Origin: Candidatus Eiseniibacteriota bacterium
GTDB lineage: Bacteria > Orphanbacterota > Orphanbacteria > Orphanbacterales > Orphanbacteraceae
Reading direction: 5' to 3'
Assembly (NCBI GenBank): GCA_016867715.1
Contig: VGIW01000001.1
Span: 14,141-78,140, forward strand
DNA length: 64,000 bases
The position numbers were made by a program, and so were the translations under genes. Positions 757 through 59,863 of the stretch are shown here, piece by piece (positions within the stretch are counted from its first letter, which is position 1; every line of letters begins with the position of its first letter). The notes below the pieces were generated by a model, which did not search any database, was not told the DNA's origin, and worked only from the letters and a program-made list of their open reading frames with translations.

Positions 757-801
757 ATGCGCGGGAGCGTGGGGTCGCCGTCTCCTGCGGCTTCGTTGGC
801 G

Positions 802-960
802 GACACGCGGGTCGTGGGAGGCCACGGCCCGCACGTGGTCCCGTCTGCGAACGGCGGGTCCTGTCGGCGGCTGTCCGCTCCATGCTCGCCAGTCGCCCTT
901 CGGGCTTGGTGGCTGCGCTTCTCGCGGACACCTGCCGCCGCCACCCGCCGTGGTTGAGTG
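802..960 (+). repeat. GC-rich ~120-bp repeat unit, copy A: degenerate terminal direct repeat plus core
   Basis: Core acggcgggtcctgtcggcggctgtccgctcCatgctcgccagtcgcccttcgggcttggtggctgcgcttctcgcggacAcctgccgccgccacccgccgtggt is about 97% identical to 41450-41557. It is flanked by a degenerate copy of gcggacRcctgccgccgccacccgcNcgtggt. It contains a GCCC-UUCG-GGC hairpin. Confidence 0.6.
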
Positions 961-1146
961 GATGAATCGTTGCAGGCCGAATTCGGTGCGCGAATGGAGC
1001 TCCGGCCGATCCCTGAAGACGTCCCCCCGCGCGGGTGGCGGCCACGGCCACCACCCAGTCTGGGTACCATGAATGCCTTCGATCGGTTATGATGAAAGAA
1101 GACGGGCGGGAGGATCGCCCGTTTGTTCCGAAAGGGAGGACGATCC

Positions 1147-1384: not shown

Positions 1385-2671
1385 GTGCGCGCGTCCGTTC
1401 ACACGCTCGGCTGCCGTCTGAATCAGGCGGAGAGCGCTCTTCTGCTCGGCGGCCTCCTTTCGCGCGGCTGGTCCGCTGCGCCCGAGGGGGAGAGCGCCGA
1501 TCTCCACATCATCAACACCTGTTCGGTCACGAGGGGGAGCGAGGCGAAATGCAGGCGCCTCATCCGCCTTCTCCGGAAGCGATCGCCGGAGGCGCGCGTC
1601 GTGGTGACCGGGTGCTACGCGGAGCTCGACGCGGAGCGGATCCGCGCAATCGGCGGCGTCGATCTTGTCGTCGGAACCGTGGACAAGCACCGCCTTCCCG
1701 ACCTCGTCTCCGCGATCGACAAGTCCTCTCCGGTCTTGAGAAACCGGGTCGAGCGCGGCCCCTTCGCGATCGAGGGAGCCGGAATCTTCGCCGAGACGCG
1801 CGCGAACTTGAAGATCCAGGACGGGTGCGACCAATTCTGCGCCTTCTGCGTGATCCCGCTCACGCGGGGGCGCGCGCGGAGCCGGCGCGCGGATGATTGC
1901 GTGCGCGAGGCGGAAGCGCTCGCGGCGCGCGGGCATCGAGAGATCGTTCTTTCGGGCGTGAACATTGGAACGTACTCGGACGGCGGCGCCGACCTCGCGC
2001 GGCTCATCGATCGGCTGGAGGAGGTTTCCGGGATCGATCGGATCCGAATCGGGTCGATCGAGCCGATGACGGCGGGGGACGAGATCATCGCGCGCATGGA
2101 GCGCGGCGGGAAGCTCTGCCCGTACCTCCATCTTTGTCTGCAGAGCGCCGACGACGGGATTCTCGCCGCGATGGGGAGGCCCTACACCGCGGCGTCGTAC
2201 GCCGCGCTCTTCGGAGCGTTCGCCCGCCGCGTGCCGGACGTCGGCGTCGGAACGGACGTGCTCGTCGGCTTTCCCGGAGAAACGGAAGAGGCGTTCCGCA
2301 ACACGATGGGTCTTCTCGAGTCGCTTCCCTTCTATCATTTCCACGTCTTCCCCTACTCCGAGCATCCAAGGACGCGCTCCGCGCGCCTTCCGGGGAAGGT
2401 GCGTCCCGACATCATCCGGCGCCGGGCGGACGAAGCCCGCGCGCTCGGCGAGGAGAAGAAGCGGCGTTTCCACGAGCGCTTCATCGGAAGGACGCTCGAC
2501 GTCCTCTTCGAGACGCGCGACCGGAGCGGGCGCTGGGTCGGCCACGCGCCGAACTACACGCGCGTCGCCGCCCGCTCGGCGGAGGATCTCGAGAACCGGA
2601 TCGCGCGCGTGCGCGTCGAAGAATCGTCGGTCGCGGATGCGCGGGGAACGGTCGAGGAGGTTCTCGGTTGA
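1385..2671 (+). CDS. mtaB: Radical-SAM methylthiotransferase, MtaB/RimO-like (MiaB family, with TRAM C-terminus)
   Basis: N-terminal TLGCRLNQ.ES MTTase domain. Radical-SAM CxxxCxxC is present in IQDGCDQFCAFCVIP. C-terminal TRAM-like region. GTG start. Confidence 0.75.
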   Translation: MRASVHTLGCRLNQAESALLLGGLLSRGWSAAPEGESADLHIINTCSVTRGSEAKCRRLIRLLRKRSPEARVVVTGCYAELDAERIRAIGGVDLVVGTVDKHRLPDLVSAIDKSSPVLRNRVERGPFAIEGAGIFAETRANLKIQDGCDQFCAFCVIPLTRGRARSRRADDCVREAEALAARGHREIVLSGVNIGTYSDGGADLARLIDRLEEVSGIDRIRIGSIEPMTAGDEIIARMERGGKLCPYLHLCLQSADDGILAAMGRPYTAASYAALFGAFARRVPDVGVGTDVLVGFPGETEEAFRNTMGLLESLPFYHFHVFPYSEHPRTRSARLPGKVRPDIIRRRADEARALGEEKKRRFHERFIGRTLDVLFETRDRSGRWVGHAPNYTRVAARSAEDLENRIARVRVEESSVADARGTVEEVLG

Positions 2672-4023
2672 AGGTTTATCTCGAAACCTACGGATGCCAG
2701 ATGAACCTCTCCGATTCGGAGGTCATCGGCGGGCTCCTCGAGGGAGAGGGCTTCGAGGTCGTCGAGGACCTTCGCGAGGCGGACCGCATCCTGATCAACA
2801 CGTGCGCGGTGCGCGAGCACGCGGAGGAACGGATCTACCAGCGCCTCCGGCAGCTCCATCCTTTGAAGAACGAGAGGCCGGCTCTTCGGATCGGCATCCT
2901 CGGATGCCTCGCGCAGAACCTCAAGGCGGATCTCCTCGAACACGAAGGGGCGGTCGACTTCATCGTCGGTCCGGACGCGTATCGGGCTCTCCCCGATCTT
3001 CTCCGAAAGAGCGCGAAGGGCGACCGGGAGCGGGAAACGCGGCTCTCGAAGACCGAAACGTACACGGACATCCCGCCGCTTCGACGCTCGGGCGTGAACG
3101 CCTGGATCACGGTGATGCGCGGCTGCGACAACTTCTGCACGTTCTGCGTCGTGCCGTACACGCGGGGGCGGGAGAGGTCGCGGCCGCTCGCGTCGGTCCT
3201 CGCCGAAGCGCGCGCGGTCGTCCGAGAAGGCGTCCCGCAGATCACGCTTCTCGGGCAGAACGTGAACTCGTACCGGGACGAAGGGCGCGGTTTCGCGGAT
3301 CTCCTTCGCGCCATGTGCCGGGTCGACGGAATTCGGCGCGTTCGTTTCACCTCTCCCCATCCGAAGGATTTTCCGGACCAGCTCCTTTGCGTCCTCGCCG
3401 AGGAGCCGGCCGCGATGCCTCACGTGCACCTTCCCCTCCAGTCGGGGAGCGACCGGGTTCTGGATCGGATGGGACGCGGCTACACGCGGGAGCATTTCGA
3501 CGGCATTGTCCAGCGGATTCGGGAAGCGATCCCCGGGGTCGCGATCACGACCGATCTCATCGCGGGCTTCCCGGGCGAAACGGACGGAGATTTCGAGGAA
3601 ACCGTCCGCGCGATGGAGGAGATCCGCTTCCATTCGGCGTTCACGTTCCCGTACTCGGAACGCAAGCACACGCTCGCCGCGCGCCGCTTCGCGGACGACG
3701 TCCCCTCCGAGGTGAAGAGCGAGCGCGTGACGCGCCTCGCGCGCATGGAGAGGGAGCACTCGAGGGAGAGGCTCGAGGAAGAGGTGGGGACGGAGGCGGA
3801 GGTCCTTGTCGAGAGCGCCAGCAAGAAGTCGGCGGAGGAGGCGTTCGGGCGAACGCCGAAGGGGAGCGGCGTCGTCTTTCCGGTCGAGCGCGTGAGGCCG
3901 GGCGAGATCCGCTCGGTCCGGCTCGTTCGCGCCACGGCCCATACCCTGATCGGGGTTTCCGGTCAACCCGATGGAAGTGCGCTCCACGCGCGGCCGCCGG
4001 GGCCCGGGGCGAGGGGTGTCTGA
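2668..4023 (+). CDS. miaB: tRNA-i6A37 methylthiotransferase MiaB
   Basis: The TTG at 2668 overlaps the mtaB stop (TTGA). Sequence LKVYLETYGCQMNLSDSE..., radical-SAM motif CDNFCTFCVVPYTRGRERSR, TRAM C-terminus. The long M-prefixed ORF 1897-4023 is an artifactual 5' extension. Confidence 0.8.
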   Translation: MKVYLETYGCQMNLSDSEVIGGLLEGEGFEVVEDLREADRILINTCAVREHAEERIYQRLRQLHPLKNERPALRIGILGCLAQNLKADLLEHEGAVDFIVGPDAYRALPDLLRKSAKGDRERETRLSKTETYTDIPPLRRSGVNAWITVMRGCDNFCTFCVVPYTRGRERSRPLASVLAEARAVVREGVPQITLLGQNVNSYRDEGRGFADLLRAMCRVDGIRRVRFTSPHPKDFPDQLLCVLAEEPAAMPHVHLPLQSGSDRVLDRMGRGYTREHFDGIVQRIREAIPGVAITTDLIAGFPGETDGDFEETVRAMEEIRFHSAFTFPYSERKHTLAARRFADDVPSEVKSERVTRLARMEREHSRERLEEEVGTEAEVLVESASKKSAEEAFGRTPKGSGVVFPVERVRPGEIRSVRLVRATAHTLIGVSGQPDGSALHARPPGPGARGV

Positions 4024-4810: not shown

Positions 4811-5164
4811 ATGAACGGTTACGCCCCGCTCATCCTCGTGGTCGCTCTCGCCCTGATCACCCCGGCGATGCTGCTCGTCGTCTCGAACTTCCTCGGAGCG
4901 AGACGGACGGAGCGGACGAAAGGGGAGCCGTACGAGTGCGGCATTCCGCAGCCCGCTCCCCCACGCCGGGCGATCCCCGTGAAGTACTACTTGGTGGCCG
5001 TTCTCTTCCTCCTCTTCGATGTCGAGGCGGTCTTCCTCTATCCGTGGGCCGTCGTCTACCGGCGTCTCGGTCTCTTCGGTTTCGTCGAGATGGCCGTCTT
5101 CCTCGCGATGCTCGTCGCGGGGCTCGTCTATGTTTGGAAGCGGGGGGCGCTCGAATGGGATTGA
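4811..5164 (+). CDS. nuoA: NADH-quinone oxidoreductase subunit A
   Basis: MNGYAPLILVVALALITPAMLL...EPYECG...YPWAVVYRRLGLFGFVEMAVFL, the typical NuoA/ND3 sequence. The upstream part of ORF 4415-5164 is an artifact. Confidence 0.9.
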   Translation: MNGYAPLILVVALALITPAMLLVVSNFLGARRTERTKGEPYECGIPQPAPPRRAIPVKYYLVAVLFLLFDVEAVFLYPWAVVYRRLGLFGFVEMAVFLAMLVAGLVYVWKRGALEWD

Positions 5165-5661
5165 GGGAGATCGAGAACCTCTCCGGATCGGGCGTGCTCA
5201 CCACGCGTCTCGACGCGGTCCTTCGATGGGGGCGCCGGAACTCTCTCTGGCCGCTCCCCTACGGAACCGCCTGCTGCGCGATCGAGTTCATGGCGGTCGT
5301 CGCCTCTCCGTTCGATCTCTCGCGCTTCGGCGCCGAGGTGGTCCGCTTCTCCCCGCGCCAGTCGGATCTCCTCATCGTCTCGGGAACGATCGTGCACAAG
5401 CAGGCGGTGATCCTTCGCAGGATCTACGCGCAGATGGCGGAGCCGAAGTGGGTGATCGCGATGGGCGCCTGCGCGAGCGCGGGCGCGTTCTATGACAATT
5501 ATTGCACGCTTCAAGGAATCGACCACGTGATCCCCGTGGACATCTATATCCCCGGGTGTCCTCCGCGGCCCGAGGCGGTCCTCCACGCCGTCACGGAGCT
5601 GCAGAGGAGAATCGACGCGGGAGTCCCCCCCCGGTCGCAGCGGACGGAAGGGAGCGCATAG
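5155..5661 (+). CDS. nuoB: NADH-quinone oxidoreductase subunit B (20 kDa, Fe-S N2)
   Basis: MGLREIE...LWPLPYGTACCAIEFMA...MGACASAGAFYDNY...IPGCPPRPE. It overlaps the nuoA end by 10 nt. Confidence 0.92.
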   Translation: MGLREIENLSGSGVLTTRLDAVLRWGRRNSLWPLPYGTACCAIEFMAVVASPFDLSRFGAEVVRFSPRQSDLLIVSGTIVHKQAVILRRIYAQMAEPKWVIAMGACASAGAFYDNYCTLQGIDHVIPVDIYIPGCPPRPEAVLHAVTELQRRIDAGVPPRSQRTEGSA

Positions 5662-5663
5662 AC

Positions 5664-7355
5664 TTGTCGTCGCCGTCTCTCGACCGTTTCCGGAGCCGCT
5701 TGGCCGGCGCGGTCCGGGAGGAACCGAATCCCTTCGGGGATACGGTGTTTCGGGTGGAACCTTCCGGTCTTCGGGACGTTCTTCGCTCCCTCCGGGACGA
5801 GCACGGTTTCGATCTGCTCCTCGATGTCACCGCGGTCGATCGTCTGGAGCTCCCCGACTCGAAACCCCGCTTCGACGTCGTGTACATCTTGCGTCCTTCG
5901 GTCGGATCGGAACGCGTGCGGGTCCAGTGCCGTCCCCCGGACGAGGACCTCGCCCTCGAGACCGTCTCGGACCTCTGGAAGTCGGCGAACTGGGCGGAGC
6001 GCGAGGTCTACGATCAATACGGCGTCCGCTTCCGCAATCACCCGAACCTGAAGCGTATTTTGAATCATAAAGATTTCGTCGGCCATCCGCTCCGGAAGGA
6101 CTACGACATCAAGAAACAGCAGTGGCTCTCCGAGCCGGACGACCTGATGGACGAGATGCGGAAGCTCCGGGGCGGCGCGGAGGAGGAGGAGAGCGAGTCG
6201 GTCCTTCTCAACATCGGCCCCTCCCATCCGGCGATGCACGGAGCGCTCCGCGCGCTCGTCGATCTCGAGGGGGAGACGGTTCGGCATACGGTTCCCGAGA
6301 TCGGCTACCTCCATCGCGGGTTCGAGAAATCGGCGGAGAAGGGGACCTACACGCACGTGATCCCCTTCACGGACCGACTGAATTATTGCAGCTCGGTCAT
6401 GAACAACATCGGTTATTGCCGGACGATCGAGAAGATGCTCGGCATCGAGCCGACGGCGCGCGCGCAGACGATCCGCGTCGTTCTTCTCGAGCTCGGACGG
6501 ATCATGGACCATCTCGTGTGCGTCGCGGCGAACCTCGTCGATGTCGGCGCGCTCACCAACTACTGGTATCTGTTCAACGAGCGCGAGAGAATCTACGACG
6601 TGATCGAGGCGCTCTGCGGCGCGCGTCTCACGCACTGCTACGTTCGGATCGGCGGTCTCGCCCACGATCTCCATGCCGGCTTCGAGGAAGGAGTCGAGGG
6701 GATCCTCCGCGAGCTCCCGAAGGCTCTCGGGGACGTGGAGAGGCTCGTCGCCCGGAATCGGATCTTCCTCGACCGGGTGGTCGGCGTCGGCGCGATCTCG
6801 GCCGAGGAGGCGATCTCGCACGGGTTCACCGGGCCGTGCCTTCGCGCATGCGGCGTTCCGAACGACCTCCGGAAGGACGAGCCGTACTACGGCTACGACG
6901 GCTACGACTGGAACGTGATCGTCGGGACGCGCGGCGACGCGTACGACCGGATCTGGGTCCGCATGGAAGAGATGCGCGAGTCGATGCGGATCGTCGCGCA
7001 GGCGATGAAGAAGATGCCGGGCGGACCGGTGAACGTCGACGACAAACGCGTGTCGCTCCCGCCGAAGACCGAGGTGTACGGCAACATCGAGGCGCTGATG
7101 AACCACTTCATGATCATCATGGAGGGGATCAAGCCGCCCGCGGGCGAGTGCTACGGTTCGATCGAGGCGGCGAACGGCGAGCTCGGCTTCTTCGTCGTGA
7201 GCGATGGAACCGGAAAACCGTACAAGGTCAAGGTGCGCCCGCCCTGCTTCTATGTCTTTTCGGCGTTCCCGCGCCTTACGGAGGGGGGAATGATCCAGGA
7301 CATGATCGCGACGCTCGGGTCGCTGAACATTATTGCGGGGGAGTTGGACCGGTGA
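5664..7355 (+). CDS. nuoCD: NADH-quinone oxidoreductase fused subunit C/D (30 kDa + 49 kDa)
   Basis: A single ORF holds a NuoC region (DLLLDVTAVDRLEL...VVYILRP...DLWKSANWAEREVYDQYGVRF) followed by a NuoD region (LNIGPSHPAMHG...RIGGLAHD...ending ELDR). The TTG start at 5664 is inferred. Confidence 0.85.
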   Translation: MSSPSLDRFRSRLAGAVREEPNPFGDTVFRVEPSGLRDVLRSLRDEHGFDLLLDVTAVDRLELPDSKPRFDVVYILRPSVGSERVRVQCRPPDEDLALETVSDLWKSANWAEREVYDQYGVRFRNHPNLKRILNHKDFVGHPLRKDYDIKKQQWLSEPDDLMDEMRKLRGGAEEEESESVLLNIGPSHPAMHGALRALVDLEGETVRHTVPEIGYLHRGFEKSAEKGTYTHVIPFTDRLNYCSSVMNNIGYCRTIEKMLGIEPTARAQTIRVVLLELGRIMDHLVCVAANLVDVGALTNYWYLFNERERIYDVIEALCGARLTHCYVRIGGLAHDLHAGFEEGVEGILRELPKALGDVERLVARNRIFLDRVVGVGAISAEEAISHGFTGPCLRACGVPNDLRKDEPYYGYDGYDWNVIVGTRGDAYDRIWVRMEEMRESMRIVAQAMKKMPGGPVNVDDKRVSLPPKTEVYGNIEALMNHFMIIMEGIKPPAGECYGSIEAANGELGFFVVSDGTGKPYKVKVRPPCFYVFSAFPRLTEGGMIQDMIATLGSLNIIAGELDR

Positions 7356-35306: not shown

Positions 35307-36218
35307 TTGTCCGATCGTCTCCTTCTCCCGTTCGTCCTTCTTCTCCATCTCGTCTTCCCTGCGCGCGCGGATATCGTCCCCGTGCGCGCGCTCTCGGGAT
35401 CTGCGGACGACGCGGCCCTCTTCTCTCCGCGAGGAATCTCGATCGGCTACGGAGGGCTTCTCTACGTCGCCGACGGCGGGAGCGACCGGATCGTCGTCTT
35501 CGATACGGCGGGCGCGGTCGCTTCGACCGTCGGCTTCTCCGGATCGGCCGGCGGCCGCTTTCTCGAGCCGACGGACGTGGCGGCCGCGGAGGGGCTGCAT
35601 CTCTACGTCCTCGACGCGGGGAACGAACGGGTGCAGCTCTTCGATCGATACGGGCAGTTCCTCGATGTGCTGCTCGATCGCGAGGCGGGGACGATCGGGA
35701 CGCCCCTCGGGCTCGAGGCGGATTCCTTTGGGCGGCTCTACGTGACCGACGCGGAGGCGGACCGGGTGCGGGTCTTTCGATCCTTCACGGGTCAAGAAGA
35801 GTTCTCGTTCGGCGGGTTCGGGACCGAGCCGGGTCGCTTCCGAGGGCCCGCCGACGCGTCGGTCGATCGCTCGCGCCGAATCTACGTCGCCGATCGAGGG
35901 AACAATCGTGTGCAGGTCTTCGATCCGCTCGGCGGTTTTCTCCGCTCGATCGGAGAAGGGGAAGGATCCGCGCGGCTCTCCGGTCCGACGGGGGTCGCGG
36001 TCGACCGGAAGGGGAGGGTCTTCGTCGCCGATGGGGGGAACGCGCGGGTGGTCGTCTTCGACGAGGCGGGGGGCTTCGCAGGCGAGATCCGGGAGGGAGT
36101 CGGCGGAAAGCCGCTCGTCTCTCCTCGCGGCGTGGCGGTCGACGACGCGGGTCTCCTCTACGTCTCCGACCCCGCCGGGGGGCTCGTTCATCTCTTCCGA
36201 TACGGGGCCGCCCCGTGA
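35307..36218 (+). CDS. NHL-repeat (six-bladed beta-propeller) secreted protein
   Basis: TTG start with RBS GGAAGAGGAG. Signal peptide. Six repeats of the type G..LYV.D.GN.RV.VFD (e.g. RIVVFDTAG, RVQLFDRYG, RVRVFRSF, RVQVFDPLG, RVVVFDEAG, LVHLFRYG). Confidence 0.7.
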   Translation: MSDRLLLPFVLLLHLVFPARADIVPVRALSGSADDAALFSPRGISIGYGGLLYVADGGSDRIVVFDTAGAVASTVGFSGSAGGRFLEPTDVAAAEGLHLYVLDAGNERVQLFDRYGQFLDVLLDREAGTIGTPLGLEADSFGRLYVTDAEADRVRVFRSFTGQEEFSFGGFGTEPGRFRGPADASVDRSRRIYVADRGNNRVQVFDPLGGFLRSIGEGEGSARLSGPTGVAVDRKGRVFVADGGNARVVVFDEAGGFAGEIREGVGGKPLVSPRGVAVDDAGLLYVSDPAGGLVHLFRYGAAP

Positions 36219-39670: not shown

Positions 39671-41403
39671 TGCGCGCATGGTCGATCGCACTCTGGTGGC
39701 TTCTTTCCGCTTCGCTCGCTCTCGCGTCGGAGCGGCCGATCGAGTCGGTCGAGGTGCGGGGGGCGGGGGCGCTCTCCCGTTCCGAGATCGAGGCCGTTCT
39801 CGCCCTCCGGAAAGGGGAGATCTGGAACGCGGAGATGGAAGGGGCGGCGGCCGATCGGCTCCTCGCCGCGTACGCGGAGAGAGGACATCTCGACGCGGAG
39901 GCGCACATCCGGGTGGTCGAGGATGGAGAGGGGTTGCGTCTCACGGTCGATGTCCGCGAGGGGCCTCGGGTTCCGATCGCGAGCGTCGACGTTCGAGGGG
40001 CGGAGGTATTCGAGAAGGAAGAAATCGAGGGACGCCTCGACACGCGGCCGGGCCGAACGCTTGAGGTATCGAAGCTTGAGGCGGATATCGATCGGCTCCT
40101 CCGAGCCTATGCGAGAGCGGGTCATCCCTTCGCGCGTGTGCTCCTCGGCGAGATCGGGCGGGAGGACGAGGGCGGTCTCGATGTCGCCTTGCGCGTCGTG
40201 GAGGGTCCTTTTCTCATCCTCGGCGACCTCCGCGCGCGGGGAAACGAAAAGACGAAGAGCCGGACGATCCGAAGGCTGACCGGCCTTCGCTTCGGCGATC
40301 CGTACGACCAGGACGCGGTCGACGCCTCCCGCGCGAGGCTCCTTCGCAGCGGTCTCTTTCGAACGGTCTCCGAGCCGTCGGCGCGGATCGATTGGAAGAA
40401 GAAGGAAGCGGTGGTCGAGATCGAGGTGGAGGAGGCGCGCGCGAACCGAATCGCCGGGGCGATCGGATACGCCCCGGGACCGCAGGGGGAGGAGGGGATT
40501 ATCAGCGGTCTCGTTGATGTCGAGTTCCGCAACATCCTCGGCACGGCGCGGAAGGGGGGAGCGCGTTGGGAGCGGCCCTCGCGCGAGACGCGGCTGGTCC
40601 GTCTCTTTTATCGGGAGCCGTGGCTTTTCGGGAGTCCGTTCGCCGTCGGAGGCGATCTCGCGCAGGACATCCGGGATTCGACGTACGCGCGCATCTCGGG
40701 CGGGCTTTCGGCGGATGTCGATCTCTCGCGCCGCGTCTCGGCGTCCTTCTCGGTCGGGGTCGAGACGATGCGGCCCCGCCGCGATTCGAGCCCGATCCCG
40801 CGAAGCACGAGAAGGCGAGGCGGCGTGGGGATCGTCTTCGAGGGACGGGATCTCCCCTTGAACCCGACACGCGGGGTCTTTCTTCGCGTCGGCTCCGAAT
40901 ACGGGGAAAAGAAGATCGAGGAGGAGCCGGAGCGCGGGATCCCGGGGGAACAGGCGCGGCAGGCGACTTTCGACTGGGGGATCGGCCTCTACCGGGGGCT
41001 CGGGCCGCGAACGGTGATCGCCTGGGAGTCGTTCGGGATTGGACGGTTCAGCAATGAAATGTATGTCCCCGCGTACGATCAGTTCTATCTGGGGGGCGCG
41101 CGCACGCTCCGAGGCTACGAGGAAGATCAGTTCCGCGGGGCGCGGGTCGCGTGGACGCGTCTCGAATACCGGTATCTCCTCGGGGCCCTTTCGCGCGTCT
41201 TTCTCTTCGCGGACGGGGGGTACGTGTTCGCGGGGCGGATGGAGGAGGAGAGGTCGGTCTCTTCGGAGACGACGAAGATCGGGTACGGGTTCGGGATCCG
41301 AGTCGATTCGCCGATCGGTCTTCTCGGGGTGGACTACGGGCTTGGGGAAGGGGATCGTCCCGGCGAGGGGAAGATCCACGTGAGCGCGGAGGGGGATTTC
41401 TAG
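39670..41403 (+). CDS. tamA: Omp85-family outer-membrane protein, TamA-like (3 POTRA + D15 barrel)
   Basis: 577 aa. The ATG start overlaps the previous stop (TGATG). Signal peptide. POTRA-like repeats (ESVEVRGAGALSRSEIEAVLALRKGEIWN...). C-terminal surface-antigen barrel ending ...GKIHVSAEGDF. Confidence 0.75.
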   Translation: MRAWSIALWWLLSASLALASERPIESVEVRGAGALSRSEIEAVLALRKGEIWNAEMEGAAADRLLAAYAERGHLDAEAHIRVVEDGEGLRLTVDVREGPRVPIASVDVRGAEVFEKEEIEGRLDTRPGRTLEVSKLEADIDRLLRAYARAGHPFARVLLGEIGREDEGGLDVALRVVEGPFLILGDLRARGNEKTKSRTIRRLTGLRFGDPYDQDAVDASRARLLRSGLFRTVSEPSARIDWKKKEAVVEIEVEEARANRIAGAIGYAPGPQGEEGIISGLVDVEFRNILGTARKGGARWERPSRETRLVRLFYREPWLFGSPFAVGGDLAQDIRDSTYARISGGLSADVDLSRRVSASFSVGVETMRPRRDSSPIPRSTRRRGGVGIVFEGRDLPLNPTRGVFLRVGSEYGEKKIEEEPERGIPGEQARQATFDWGIGLYRGLGPRTVIAWESFGIGRFSNEMYVPAYDQFYLGGARTLRGYEEDQFRGARVAWTRLEYRYLLGALSRVFLFADGGYVFAGRMEEERSVSSETTKIGYGFGIRVDSPIGLLGVDYGLGEGDRPGEGKIHVSAEGDF

Positions 41404-41408
41404 GTGTG

Positions 41409-41557
41409 CGGACGCCTGCCGCCGCCACCCGCGCGTGGTTGGGTTGTCGGACGGCGGGTCCTGTCGGCGGCTGTCCGCTCGATGCTCGCCAGTCGCCCTT
41501 TCGGGCTTGGTGGCTGCGCTTCTCGCGGACGCCTGCCGCCGCCACCCGCCGTGGTGG
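41409..41557 (+). repeat. GC-rich ~117-bp repeat, copy B (terminal direct repeats at 41409-41440 and 41526-41557 flanking the core)
   Basis: gcggacgcctgccgccgccacccgcgcgtggt ... core ... gcggacgcctgccgccgccacccgccgtggt. The core is about 97% identical to 852-953. Confidence 0.65.
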
Positions 41558-41798
41558 CGTCGTCGGACGGCGGGGTACCACACAAGCAGGTCTGTCTTCC
41601 TCCGGAGACGGGGGGCGGGGCAGAGCGGCGAGTTGCCGCGCGCTTCGCGCGGCATGTTTGAGCAAGCGAGCCCCGCCCCTCGGCTCCGGAGGGGTTTCGT
41701 TCGAGACGCATTTCTGGAAACGATGTCGACCGGGCCGGGCGGAGAGGAACGGAGCGTGATCGAGGGGCGGGCGATCGAGAGATGGGAGGTAATGTGTC

Positions 41799-42332
41799 GT
41801 GGTTACGGTGAGAGAGGTTCGCGAGGGGGATCGGGAATGGGTCGCGAGGTTTCTCGCGGAGGAGTGGGGCTCGTCCGTGATCGTCACGCGCGGGAAGATC
41901 CATCGGGGAGAAGCTCTGCCTGGGTTTGTCGCGGAGAGCGAGAGGAAGAGGATCGGGTTGATTACGTATCGCATCGATTCGGGAGAGTGCGAGGTGATCT
42001 CGCTGAACAGCCTGCAGGAGAGAGCCGGAGTGGGGAGCAGGCTTCTTCTCGCGGTGGAGAACGAGGCGTTGCGGGCCGGGTGCGCGCGGTTCTTTCTCAT
42101 CACGACGAACGACAACTTCCCGGCGATCCGGTTTTACAAGAGACGCGGTTTCTTCGTGCGAGCCGTCCGACGGGACGCTGTCGAACTCTCGCGGCGCCTG
42201 AAGCCGTCGATCCCGCGCATCGGGTTCTGCGGCCTTCCACTCCGCCACGAGGTCGAGATGGAGCTTCCTCTCGTTCGTTCGGGAAGGGACTCGGGGAAGA
42301 ACCTCGTTTTCCGCGCGGGCCCCATCGGCTAA
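41799..42332 (+). CDS. GNAT-family N-acetyltransferase
   Basis: GTG start. ...EVISLNSLQERAGVGSRLLLAVENEALRAGCARFFLITTNDNFPAIRFYKRRGFF, a GNAT motif A/B pattern. Confidence 0.7.
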   Translation: MVTVREVREGDREWVARFLAEEWGSSVIVTRGKIHRGEALPGFVAESERKRIGLITYRIDSGECEVISLNSLQERAGVGSRLLLAVENEALRAGCARFFLITTNDNFPAIRFYKRRGFFVRAVRRDAVELSRRLKPSIPRIGFCGLPLRHEVEMELPLVRSGRDSGKNLVFRAGPIG

Positions 42333-57169: not shown

Positions 57170-58757
57170 CTGCCTGGTCAAGCTGGGGCTCTTGTCCGAG
57201 CAGGACCTCCTCGATTTCCTCAGCGCGCAGTTCAAGCTGCCGCCCGCGGACCTTCGCGCGCTCGAGGCGGACCGGGCGGTCCTCGACCTCGTTCCGCACG
57301 AGATCTGCTCCCGTTTCAACGTGATCCCGATTCGGAGGCAAGGCCGGACCCTCCAGCTCGCGATGGCCGACCCGACGAACATCTACGCGGTGGAGGACAT
57401 CAAGTTCCTCACCGGGCTCGAGATCCAGCCGGTGGTGGCGGTCGAATCGAAGATCCGCGAGGCGATCGGAGCGTACTACGACAACTCGTCCGAAGCGCTC
57501 GAGAACCTCATGAAGGACTTCGAGGAGGAGGACGTCGAGGTCCTCGACTCGCAGGTCGAGCCGGACGCTGGGGTCTCCGTCGATGAGGCCTCCGACGCGC
57601 CCGTGGTCAAGCTCGTCAACTCGATGATCGCCGAGGCGGTTCACCGGAGAGCGAGCGACATCCACATCGAGCCGTTCGAGAAGCAGCTCCGTGTCCGTTT
57701 CCGGATCGACGGGACCCTCTACACCGTGATGGGCCCGCCCATCCGGATGAAGAACGCGATCGCTTCACGCGTGAAGATCATGGCCTCTCTCGACATCGCC
57801 GAGAAGAGGACGCCGCAGGACGGCAACATCAAGATCCGCCTGCACGACAAGACGGTCGATCTTCGCGTGTCGACCCTTCCGACGGTTTTCGGGGAAAAGG
57901 TGGTGATGCGCGTTCTCGACCAGTCGAACCTGAGCGTCGATCTCTCGAAGCTCGGATTCGAGGAGCTCGCGCGGCGGAACTTCGAGCGCGCGATCCGGTC
58001 GCCGTGGGGAATGGTCCTCGTGACCGGGCCGACCGGGAGCGGGAAGACGACAACCCTCTACTCGGCCCTCTCGACGGTGAACACGCCGGACACGAACATC
58101 CTGACCGCCGAGGACCCGGTCGAGTACAACCTCGAAGGGATCAATCAGGTGGGGATCAACGAGGCGGCCGGCCTCACGTTCGCCTCGGCGCTCCGCTCGT
58201 TTCTCCGGCAGGACCCGAACATCATCATGGTCGGCGAGATCCGCGACCTCGAGACGGCCGGCATCGCGGTGAAGGCGGCGCTCACCGGGCACCTCGTGCT
58301 CTCGACGCTGCACACGAACGACGCGCCGAGCACGATCAATCGTCTCATCGACATGGGGGTGGAGCCCTTCCTGGTTTCGTCCTCCGTGCGGCTCATTCTC
58401 GCCCAGCGTCTCATCCGCCGAACGTGCGCGCGGTGCGCCGAGGAGATCGAGCCGCACCCGGAGGCGCTCGCCGAGCTCGGCGTCACGGAAGCGTGGGCTT
58501 CGAAGATCTCCTTCAAGAAGGGGAAAGGGTGCGACGCCTGCAACGGGTCGGGGTATTCGGGAAGGCAGGGGCTCTTCGAGGTGATGCCGATCACGCCCGC
58601 GGTCTCGCGGATGATCCTGGATCGCCGTTCGGCGGACGAGATTCGGGACCGGGCGGTGGAGGAAGGGATGCTCACGCTTCGCCAGGACGGCATCCGCAAG
58701 ATCGAAAAGGGAATCACGACGATCGAGGAAGTTCTCCGGGAGACGTCCGCGGCTTGA
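57063..58757 (+). CDS. pilB: Type IV pilus assembly ATPase PilB (GspE family)
   Basis: N-terminal GspE-N domains. Walker [10 protein letters not shown]. Asp box, His box and tetracysteine CARC...CDAC. It overlaps the comEA tail by ~107 nt in another frame. Confidence 0.9.
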
Positions 58758-58774: not shown

Positions 58775-59863
58775 ATGCCGTCGCTTCGAGTGCTGTTGGA
58801 GGAGATGCTGGAAAGGAACGCGTCGGACATCCATCTTTCCGCCGGGCATCCGCCGCAGCTCCGCATCGACGGAGATCTGACGTCGAGCCGGACGGCGGAA
58901 CCGCTCGGCCCCGAGGCGGTTCTCCAGCTCGCGTACTCGATCCTCACTGAGGATCAGAGGAAGCGCTTCGAGAAGGACAAGGAGCTCGACCTCTCGTTCG
59001 GAATCCGGGGAGTCTCCCGCTTCCGCGCGAATGTTTATATGCAAAGAGGTTCGGTCTCCGTCGCGATCCGGCGCATTCCGTTCGAGATCCTCTCGTTCGA
59101 GGAGCTCGGGCTTCCGCCGATCGTGCAGGAGCTCGCCCAGAAGCCGAAGGGGCTCATTCTCGTGACCGGGCCGACCGGGTGCGGGAAGTCGACCACCCTC
59201 GCGTCGATCATCGACAAGATCAATGAGGAGCGCCGGTCGCACATCATCACGATCGAGGATCCCATCGAGTACGTGCACCGGAACAAGTCCTCGACGATCG
59301 ACCAGAGGGAGGTCGGCGCCGACACCGTCTCCTTCCACGCCGCCCTCAAGTACGTCCTCCGGCAAGATCCGGACGTGATCCTGATCGGCGAGATGCGCGA
59401 CCTCGAGACGATCCAAGCGGCGCTCACGATCGCGGAAACCGGCCATCTCGCGCTCGCGACGCTCCACACGAACTCGGCGGCGGAATCGATCAATCGAATC
59501 GTCGACGTCTTTCCGGCCGGCCAGAAGAACGAAGTCCAAGCCCAGCTCGCTTTCGTTTTGGAGGGAGTGATCTGCCAGCAGCTCGTCCCGCGGAGCTACG
59601 GCCCGGGCCGGGTTCTCATCGCGGAGGTTCTCGTCTGCACGCCGGCGATCCGCGCCGTCATCCGCGAAGGGAAGATTCATCAGGTCTACGGCATGATGCA
59701 GGCGAGCGCGAAGTTCGGGATGCAGACGATGAACCAGTCGCTCTTCCATGCGATCCGGCGGCGGATGCTCTCTCGGGAGGCCGCTCTCGAGCGGAGCCAG
59801 GATCCGCGCGAACTCGAGCAGATGCTCGGGCGAGCCGATGCGCCGGTCGCGTCCCGAGCGTAA
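58775..59863 (+). CDS. pilT: Twitching motility ATPase PilT
   Basis: MPSLRVLLEEMLERNASDIHL...GPTGCGKSTT...HLALATLHTNSAAESINRIVDVFP... RBS AAAGGAG. The M-prefixed ORF 58004-59863 is an artifactual extension. Confidence 0.9.
   Translation: MPSLRVLLEEMLERNASDIHLSAGHPPQLRIDGDLTSSRTAEPLGPEAVLQLAYSILTEDQRKRFEKDKELDLSFGIRGVSRFRANVYMQRGSVSVAIRRIPFEILSFEELGLPPIVQELAQKPKGLILVTGPTGCGKSTTLASIIDKINEERRSHIITIEDPIEYVHRNKSSTIDQREVGADTVSFHAALKYVLRQDPDVILIGEMRDLETIQAALTIAETGHLALATLHTNSAAESINRIVDVFPAGQKNEVQAQLAFVLEGVICQQLVPRSYGPGRVLIAEVLVCTPAIRAVIREGKIHQVYGMMQASAKFGMQTMNQSLFHAIRRRMLSREAALERSQDPRELEQMLGRADAPVASRA

Follow-up and report, generated by a model that had tools for sequence, protein, structure and literature searches.

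Which kind of element is represented by two nearly identical, GC-rich intergenic sequences that lie in the same orientation on one stretch of 64,000 nucleotides (nt) from a Candidatus (Ca.) Eiseniibacteriota bacterium (assembly GCA_016867715.1, contig VGIW01000001.1, positions 14,141 to 78,140 of the forward strand; the whole stretch is called the window below)? An earlier note, made from the letters of the sequence, had described these two sequences, copies A and B, as a structured repeat of ~120 bp and had considered a REP-like element, a MITE (a transposable element of the miniature inverted-repeat type), a small structured RNA and a recombination or regulatory site. The analysis presented here assigns copies A and B, with a probability of about 0.65, to a family of palindromic repeats of the REP/REPIN/ERIC kind that is dispersed, intergenic and specific to one lineage. 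The feature is real and has solid statistical support. The family adds a new case to a well-known type of bacterial repeat and does not constitute a new type of system; it is apparently undescribed in Eisenbacteria, with a literature search returning nothing on repeats there.

Global alignment of the two copies (coordinates are collected in Table 1) gave identity in 99 of 102 columns, with two substitutions and one 1-nt indel as the differences, which bears out the ~105-nt core said to recur on the same strand at a distance of 40.6 kb. A repeat finder equally paired 821-900 with 41421-41500 (family D7) and 896-959 with 41497-41560 (D9), and its family D18 corresponds to a 25-mer of the element, GCGGACNCCTGCCGCCGCCACCCGC, that occurs three times in the window as compared to 0.00 expected from 100 dinucleotide-preserving shuffles. 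The intergenic location of both copies is confirmed, with gene identities taken from precomputed Pfam calls on orthologous contigs. Copy A is situated between nadA (ends at 756) and a Zn_ribbon_8 gene (~1148-1335) followed by MtaB-type radical-SAM genes, whereas copy B is preceded by an Omp85/POTRA gene of the BamA/TamA family that ends at 41403, and on its other side come a GNAT gene at 41799-42332 and then ligA. The open reading frames (ORFs) across the element had rightly been called spurious, as copies A and B differ in length by 1 nt and apex indels of 1, 5, 6 and ~65-70 nt distinguish copies of the family; a coding role of the unit is ruled out by these non-triplet indels.

Rather than a ~120-bp repeat, the unit is best described as a hairpin of 101-102 nt in the window and ~101-112 nt in the family, consisting of two nearly invariant arms of 28-30 nt, imperfect inverted copies of each other, that flank a variable apex. 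The 5' arm, ACGGCGGGU-CCUGU-CGGCGGC-UGUCCGC, and the 3' arm, GCGGACR-CCU-GCCGCCG-CC-ACCCGCCGU, pair as three helices (9+7+7 bp) to give one long imperfect hairpin per unit, with a conserved asymmetric internal loop between helices 1 and 2 (5' CCUGU facing CC) and a 3-nt 3' bulge, CCU, between helices 2 and 3. The unit, with ends ACGGCGGG...CCCGCCGTGG, has TCGR to its left and GGYN to its right, and the short palindrome GCGGCTGTCCGC listed previously is present. Minimum free energies of the isolated copies are -60.1 kcal/mol for copy A (z=-4.6) and -62.7 kcal/mol for copy B (z=-4.8), which forms the same three helices and carries one extra U in its apex (GCCC-UUUCG-GGC). The GCCC-UUCG-GGC hairpin reported earlier exists, but its UUCG tetraloop is not a feature of the family: the apex varies in sequence and in length (~40 to ~110 nt) while it stays paired, and at least four apex types are known besides long-apex forms.

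The tandem organization proposed earlier, with about 1.3 units per locus bounded by a ~32-nt direct repeat, holds at copy B and not at copy A. At copy B, a solo 3' arm that starts 4 nt past the BamA-like stop codon matches the 3' arm of the complete unit in 32 of 32 bases with one 1-nt gap and a period of 117 (local alignment score 57 versus 16.2 +/- 2.7 for shuffles), and is what remains of a preceding tandem unit. Downstream of copy B, a 12/12 match to the start of the unit, alone not significant, is preceded by a linker, GGTGGCGTCGTC, that is similar to the linker upstream of copy B. Copy A is one unit only, with the bounding repeat at the level of shuffles (Table 1), and the stretch at ~800-840 upstream of it may be a decayed arm or a chance resemblance.

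The hairpin is under selection and is kept by compensatory changes. Covariation was assessed in two alignments, A1 with 15 sequences aligned by MAFFT and not fitted to a model, and A2 with 19 sequences fitted to the covariance model, a fitting that biases A2 towards the structure while the unfitted A1 gives an equal result. RNAalifold on A1 predicted 32 pairs, 7 of which show compensatory double changes. The proportion of paired cells is 97.3% (A1) and 97.5% (A2) versus ~93% in shuffles, the number of pairs changed on both sides 7 versus 2.7-2.8 expected, with neither reached in any of 500 shuffles, and the covariation score 0.15 versus 0.07. When the registers are slid by 1-3 columns, at most 64% of the cells remain paired and at most 3 pairs are changed on both sides. 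Compensatory changes were found in 5/9 pairs of the apex helix. A G-C to C-G swap in helix 2 is common to the subfamily L008b, L013, L016 and L023 (L numbers denote retrieved loci) and distinguishes the tandem units of L008; at the foot of the apex helix, G-C alternates with A-U, and four different swaps lie inside this helix. Independent compensatory events are estimated at no fewer than 6.

Beyond the window, copies A and B are members of a dispersed hairpin family that is so far known only from a clade of uncultured Eisenbacteria. Some 22 further copies (at least 20) were gathered from two metagenome-assembled genomes (MAGs) and from metagenomes, which represents at least four genomes or populations in total. 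When genomes representing each GTDB species once were scanned with the arm 25-mer, 12 loci were obtained, 11 of them true, namely seven in the Ca. Eisenbacteria MAG JBDRFQ01 (GCA_043818685.1) and four (five matches) in the MAG 'Gemmatimonadetes bacterium DeMMO4_6' (JAGUYC01), a record with a probably outdated phylum label; the match in Halomonas (L001), a chance match within coding DNA, was dropped. A gapped two-arm pattern recovered four more true copies from JGI metagenomes besides one chance match, again within coding DNA and dropped (L015), and extra copies were also recovered at orthologous loci. With nhmmer and covariance model R1, 19 full-length units score 88-124 bits and the opposite strand of these sites 11-20 bits; in the window, no further or divergent unit was detected by the covariance model, with the next-best match at 15.9 bits (E=0.43). 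All true copies derive from Ca. Eisenbacteria or related MAGs, with no match to the unit in viral contigs, plasmids and phages and none by blastn (word 11) in 5,426 complete Escherichia coli genomes. Counts per genome are lower bounds, with 9 copies in JBDRFQ and 6 in DeMMO4_6; the window has 2 per 64 kb. Contigs start or end in a unit or within ~20 nt of it at L011, L012 and L023; such breaks, the usual mark of multi-copy repeats in short-read assemblies, suggest that copies are under-counted. The earlier note had held a simple local duplication to be favoured should the two copies be the only ones and covariation be missing, and the opposite was found in both respects.

The family comes in several forms. 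Two complete units stand in tandem at L008, a partial neighbouring unit is found on one or both sides at copy B, L014, L016 and L017, L010 is a solo 3' arm and L016 5089-5174 an internally deleted remnant. Long-apex variants (L007 1170-1348 and L011 1204-1376, minus strand, designated L011b) with ~65-70 extra apex bases (…CCCTCCGCGCTTCGCGCTCCGGGKACTCCCTCGGC…) are common to two MAGs, and either an insertion nested in the unit or an ancient subfamily might account for them. JAGUYC01 contributes, at L005, L008, L009 and L011, units that are identical to those of the window; the one at L011 4365-4467 has the apex of copy B and differs by one arm base; the best named relatives of the BamA and MtaB of the window are in Ca. 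Eisenbacteria.

Persistence and turnover of the unit can be followed at three loci (nadA, BamA and TrmB/cydA) compared between the lineage of the window and the JBDRFQ MAG, where the element occupies the same position in genomes with 74-78% identical flanking proteins and a difference of ~18% in the coding DNA on either side. Arms are 90-100% identical between orthologues and the remaining intergenic DNA is, by inspection, apparently unrelated; the closely related unit of L031 differs from copy A by one C-to-U change, which gives a U.G pair. The apex type tracks the genome and not the locus. In the lineage of the window, each of the three loci carries GCCC-UU(U)CG-GGC; in JBDRFQ, two loci carry AGGCGCCCGAGCGCGCC and one carries GCAC-CUUC-GUGC, both of which also occur in other JBDRFQ copies. 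Copies resemble each other more within a genome than between orthologues. Equally, the BamA of L023 is only 9% diverged from that of the window, yet the unit at the same site belongs to a different arm subfamily. Because the apex type follows the genome rather than the locus, the pattern indicates concerted evolution or turnover of the family, with gene conversion among the copies or recurrent replacement at one site as the means, and not simple vertical drift. At one locus that lacks the hairpin unit (L025 5927-8503, from JBDROZ01, a more distant Eisenbacteria MAG), the GNAT and LigA regions are called as a single 858-aa product, which is either a gene fusion or a mis-call.

Table 1. Hairpin units, their parts, orthologous loci and accompanying repeat modules (positions refer to the window unless a locus is named; aa, amino acid identity)
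Feature	Position or presence	Strand	Support or remark
Copy A, complete hairpin unit	851..951	+	covariance model R1 match 847-957, 114.2 bits, E=1.7e-24
Copy A, helix 1	851-859 with 943-951		ACGGCGGGU paired with ACCCGCCGU
Copy A, helix 2	865-871 with 934-940		CGGCGGC paired with GCCGCCG
Copy A, helix 3	872-878 with 924-930		UGUCCGC paired with GCGGACR
Copy A, apex	879-923		tip GCCC-UUCG-GGC
Palindromic core GCGG-CTGT-CCGC in arm	867-878		invariant, 4-bp stem only
Palindromic core GCGG-ACACCTG-CCGC in arm	924-938		invariant, 4-bp stem only
Weak arm-like stretch (GCGGACAC ... CCCGCACGTGGT)	800..840	+	local alignment score 19 versus shuffles 18.0 +/- 3.3
Copy B, complete hairpin unit	41451..41552	+	covariance model R1 match 41447-41558, 110.7 bits, E=1.2e-23
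Solo 3' arm GCGGACGCCTGCCGCCGCCACCCGCGCGTGGT	41408..41439	+	exact pattern match; repeat family D18
TCGGACGGCGGG, putative first 12 nt of truncated further unit	41563..41574	+	position matches unit-linker-unit junctions in L008, L016, L017
nadA to Zn-ribbon locus	present: window; L031 (MtaB 98% aa); L030 (MtaB 78% aa)		absent: none seen
BamA to GNAT locus	present: window; L023 (BamA 91% aa); L024 (74%)		absent: L026 (66%, 61-nt spacer); L025 (63%); L029 (57%)
TrmB locus, beside cydA	present: L017, L004 (flanking DNA 82-83% identical)		absent: none seen
Repeat module CGACGAGGCCGGGTACCCGC	L002 1857-1876; L010 6443-6462; L014 7898-7917		
Repeat module ACCAGCGAGGCGGRCC	L003 1473-1488; L004 3682-3697; L006 1493-1508; L010 6405-6420		
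Repeat module GTTAAGGAACCTGGTTC	L009 115-131; L011 4295-4348		
Repeat module CCAGGAGGGCAATCGCC	L004 3719-3735; L030 861-877		

In line with the intergenic bias that the earlier note had wished to see checked, all copies examined are extragenic and stand beside ordinary chromosomal genes, with transporters, dehydrogenases, a histidine kinase, a thiolase, a peptidase and an MscS channel among the 30 neighbouring proteins at 15 loci. Units between co-directional genes are in sense orientation in 6/6 cases (copies A and B, L002, L005, L008 and L016; one-sided binomial p ~0.016), and at L014, where no copy is antisense, the unit is preceded on its own strand by an msrB-like ORF, the end of which lies 200 nt upstream. 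Equally, single-sided changes that count as retaining the pair are G.U or U.G in every case (17 cells, 6 pairs) as compared to 6 A.C/C.A cells, part of which fall in an apex type of doubtful alignment; counted as events, this is about 6 G.U versus 1-2 A.C. At L008, the two units separate the large subunit of methylmalonyl-CoA mutase from its B12-binding subunit, in a probable operon, and at L016 a unit is located between two paralogous T4-gp19-like tail-tube genes, probably also an operon. From this location between operon genes it follows that the unit is almost certainly transcribed, and is not an efficient terminator, at L008 and L016. An intrinsic (Rho-independent) terminator was equally rejected for the unit as such, as no U-run follows the hairpin, the 3' arm being followed by GGYN, and no promoter-like or terminator-like sites were found to bracket copies A and B. 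The tail-tube genes of L016 are probably those of a contractile injection system, and a remnant with two truncated 5' arms is found there directly after the stop codon of the second gene; these L016 features span 5089-5174 and 5827-5935.

Taken as a palindromic repeat of the REP/REPIN/ERIC kind, the unit would be transcribed with its neighbours in sense orientation and would fold as RNA into a hairpin of ~-60 kcal/mol. By analogy with REP elements, this hairpin, in 3' untranslated regions and intercistronic spacers, would most likely hold back 3'-exonucleases from upstream mRNA, or offer a site for processing or for protein binding, and would not act as a terminator. At the DNA level, slow duplication and gene conversion would keep the family uniform, with duplication proceeding in tandem and probably also by transposition via single-stranded DNA (ssDNA) through a RAYT-type enzyme acting in trans; a role as transposase substrate would explain the spread of the unit.

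Several observations weigh against parts of this reading. Folding energy does not pick the strand, with the reverse strands folding equally well at -60 to -65 kcal/mol, and the strand call rests on the G.U counts and the orientations. Strand-specific ssDNA at the replication fork could yield the same two biases, and for this reason an activity at the RNA level is something we infer, its role being argued from the REP analogy with the strand evidence as support. Unpaired positions of the arms are as conserved as paired ones, which fits recent common descent or sequence-specific recognition and not a purely structural role. The palindromic core of the arm, GCGG-CUGU-CCGC, has just 4 bp, so that classical REPs surpass it in strength. 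For copy number per genome, only a lower bound is at hand. Finally, a RAYT or transposase stands beside no copy: a Pfam scan found none among the 30 neighbouring proteins and a regular expression for the RAYT/IS200 HUH motif gave no match in the 280 kb examined, well under a tenth of a genome.

One alternative is a purely selfish strict REPIN, in which the hairpin acts only in ssDNA as the substrate of a single-copy RAYT and effects on transcripts are incidental. Strict membership requires a cognate RAYT (Y1 HUH transposase, PF01797) flanked by the same REPs, and none was seen in the sequences examined, with the limited coverage just given. The architecture, the tandem arrays, the solo arms (L010 and 41408-41439) and the long persistence fit the published description, strand-specific transposition via ssDNA also predicts an orientation bias and tolerance of G.T, and the contig breaks at L011, L012 and L023 are those of a multi-copy repeat. 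The orthologous occupancy of 3/3 loci across ~75% aa identity and the intact units inside operons speak against it and suggest that the host tolerates or uses the units. This alternative is kept as a possible, though unlikely, explanation.

The unit might be a host-maintained, sequence-specific structured module and not merely selfish, a protein-recognized RNA or ssDNA hairpin retained at fixed intergenic and intercistronic sites across Eisenbacteria genera and homogenized by gene conversion. We regard this possibility as rather speculative; if true, the family would either be a 'nested replicator' system of REPIN-RAYT type, the first from hosts other than the Proteobacteria-type ones studied so far, or an analogue that does without a RAYT and has its own partner protein.

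That the units are genes for a discrete structured RNA, either a trans-acting small RNA or a cis-regulator that senses a ligand or protein, can be advocated from the strong covariation, the sense orientation and the conserved internal loops, but is improbable. Copies abut the stop and start codons of unrelated genes and accordingly share no common regulon, promoter-like or terminator-like signals do not bracket the unit, and tandem, truncated and solo-arm forms are typical of repeats. A variable apex on invariant stems is the reverse of most riboswitch-like RNAs. The Rfam comparison advised earlier equally assigned no family: in the whole window no match was obtained at gathering thresholds, and around copy B only noise at E<=10, of which BTH_s1 (41536-41573, minus strand, 10.4 bits versus a gathering threshold of 74) overlaps the 3' end of copy B and the other three weak matches fall outside the unit.

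Less credible still are the two remaining candidates of the earlier note, which are unsupported where the REP-like one fits best. Were the unit a conventional MITE, derived by deletion from an insertion sequence and mobilized as double-stranded DNA through recognition of the arms as terminal inverted repeats by a DDE transposase, this would account for the imperfect inverted repeats of ~28-30 nt with which a short non-coding element begins and ends. No target-site duplication was found at 12 single copies outside the conserved TCGR...GG ends, compensatory changes extend throughout the interior and are not confined to the termini, and no arm pair enclosing a transposase was found among the loci retrieved. 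Retention at orthologous sites across genera is also unlike short-lived MITEs (10.1101/2021.07.10.451892), and we consider this origin very unlikely. A site for site-specific recombination such as an integron attC, comparable to the VCRs of Vibrio, would likewise be a ~100-120-nt imperfect palindrome downstream of genes with conserved ends, extrahelical bases and a variable centre, and some copies are followed by GTTGRGT (952-958 and 41438-41444). The R''/R' cores RYYYAAC/GTTRRRY are not conserved, GTT follows only some copies, the neighbours are housekeeping genes in conserved synteny instead of cassettes and an integrase was not seen, which leaves little room for this explanation. A simple local duplication on this contig or an assembly artefact, the merest of possibilities, is refuted by the copies that occur independently, at unrelated as well as at orthologous loci, in NCBI MAGs, JGI metagenomes and other assemblies.

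Other short repeat modules often accompany the units within ~100 nt. At least four short repeat modules recur within ~100 nt downstream of units in combinations that differ by locus (Table 1), and the intergenic DNA of the clade looks like a BIME-like mosaic of repeat modules. A second GC-rich hairpin of ~104 nt, unrelated to the unit (CCGGAGACGGGGGGCGGGGC ... GCCCCGCCCCTCGGCTCCGG), is found at 41595-41698, 40 nt 3' of copy B. Its 3' half (41654-41679) is the exact reverse complement of L014 7605-7630, 80 nt upstream of the L014 unit, and it therefore belongs to another repeat family; the Logan contigs L018-L022 (5/5 for the BamA-GNAT locus) break inside it, 137 nt 5' of the GNAT gene. Between copy A and the Zn-ribbon gene, a small hairpin, GGGTGGCGGCC-ACGG-CCACCACCC, lies within 1033-1056, and a terminator-like stem, GACGGGCG...CGCCCGT followed by TTGTT, lies at 1102-1122 just 5' of the ribosome-binding site, where the terminator scan marks the minus strand only.

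The window has other repetitive features as well. Tandem paralogues of radical-SAM methylthiotransferases, MtaB-like (1385-2671) and then MiaB-like (~2650-4023), have in common a 65-nt stretch of 75% identity (family D12), with a TRAM domain in the MiaB-like orthologue of L030. Four in-frame repeats inside a coding region at 35461-36072 (YVADGG.DRIVVFD / YVLDAGNERVQLFD / YVADRGNNRVQVFD / FVADGGNARVVVFD) presumably represent an NHL-type beta-propeller repeat. Adjacent paralogous genes at 58001-58256 and 59143-59410 with a common Walker-A segment (one being VTGPTGCGKSTTL) are taken by us to resemble secretion ATPases of the PilB/PilT type.

Repetitive palindromic elements influence how stable mRNAs are, how operons are processed, how genomes rearrange and how well they assemble; to our knowledge, they have been studied almost only in Proteobacteria and Firmicutes. 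With the family described here, an uncultured phylum gains a defined example that is supported by covariation. The family accounts for contig breaks in MAGs of Eisenbacteria and marks ORFs called across units as spurious, and its covariance model and alignments can be used for a census of the clade and a search for the partner enzyme.

Among known systems, attC sites and VCRs are about as long as the unit and share with it the imperfect palindrome, the conserved ends, the bulged bases, the variable centre and reading of one strand, and differ by the RYYYAAC/GTTRRRY cores, the cassette context and the integrase noted above. Correia/NEMIS elements of Neisseria and RUP/BOX elements of Streptococcus are equally non-coding, co-transcribed, hairpin-forming intergenic repeats of ~100-150 nt, but are MITE-like with terminal inverted repeats and target duplications (TA for Correia), and no such duplication is found at Eisenbacteria units. 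Closer is ERIC/IRU, an imperfect palindrome of ~127 bp of Enterobacteriaceae and Vibrio, which shares the size class, the single long hairpin and the transcribed intergenic or operon-internal location, and whose internal-insertion variants can be compared to the long-apex forms L007 and L011b. The Eisenbacteria unit is unrelated to ERIC in sequence, absent from the E. coli genomes searched and from a different phylum, and ERIC copies are not usually tandem. Closest are the REPINs and REP/BIME elements of Pseudomonas and Enterobacteria, which are mobilized by RAYT transposases (Bertels & Rainey; PMC3116915, PMC3337134). REPINs consist of inverted conserved sequences around a variable, hairpin-keeping spacer, fall into spacer-length classes, form tandem units and decaying singlets, duplicate slowly, persist vertically for long and conserve a master sequence (PMC3337134, 10.1101/2021.07.10.451892). 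The Eisenbacteria unit differs from them by lack of sequence similarity and of a GTAG-type 5' tetranucleotide, by longer arms (28-30 nt) with conserved asymmetric loops, by a RAYT partner that is only putative and by a host from an uncultured FCB-group phylum. It shares with them the pairing of inverted conserved ends into a hairpin, a variable complementary spacer of several length classes, the extragenic location, tandem arrays, decaying singlets, the mosaic with other repeat modules and long vertical persistence. The family shows both orthologous persistence and homogenization within the genome, the two signatures from which REPINs have been argued to be long-lived 'nested replicators'.

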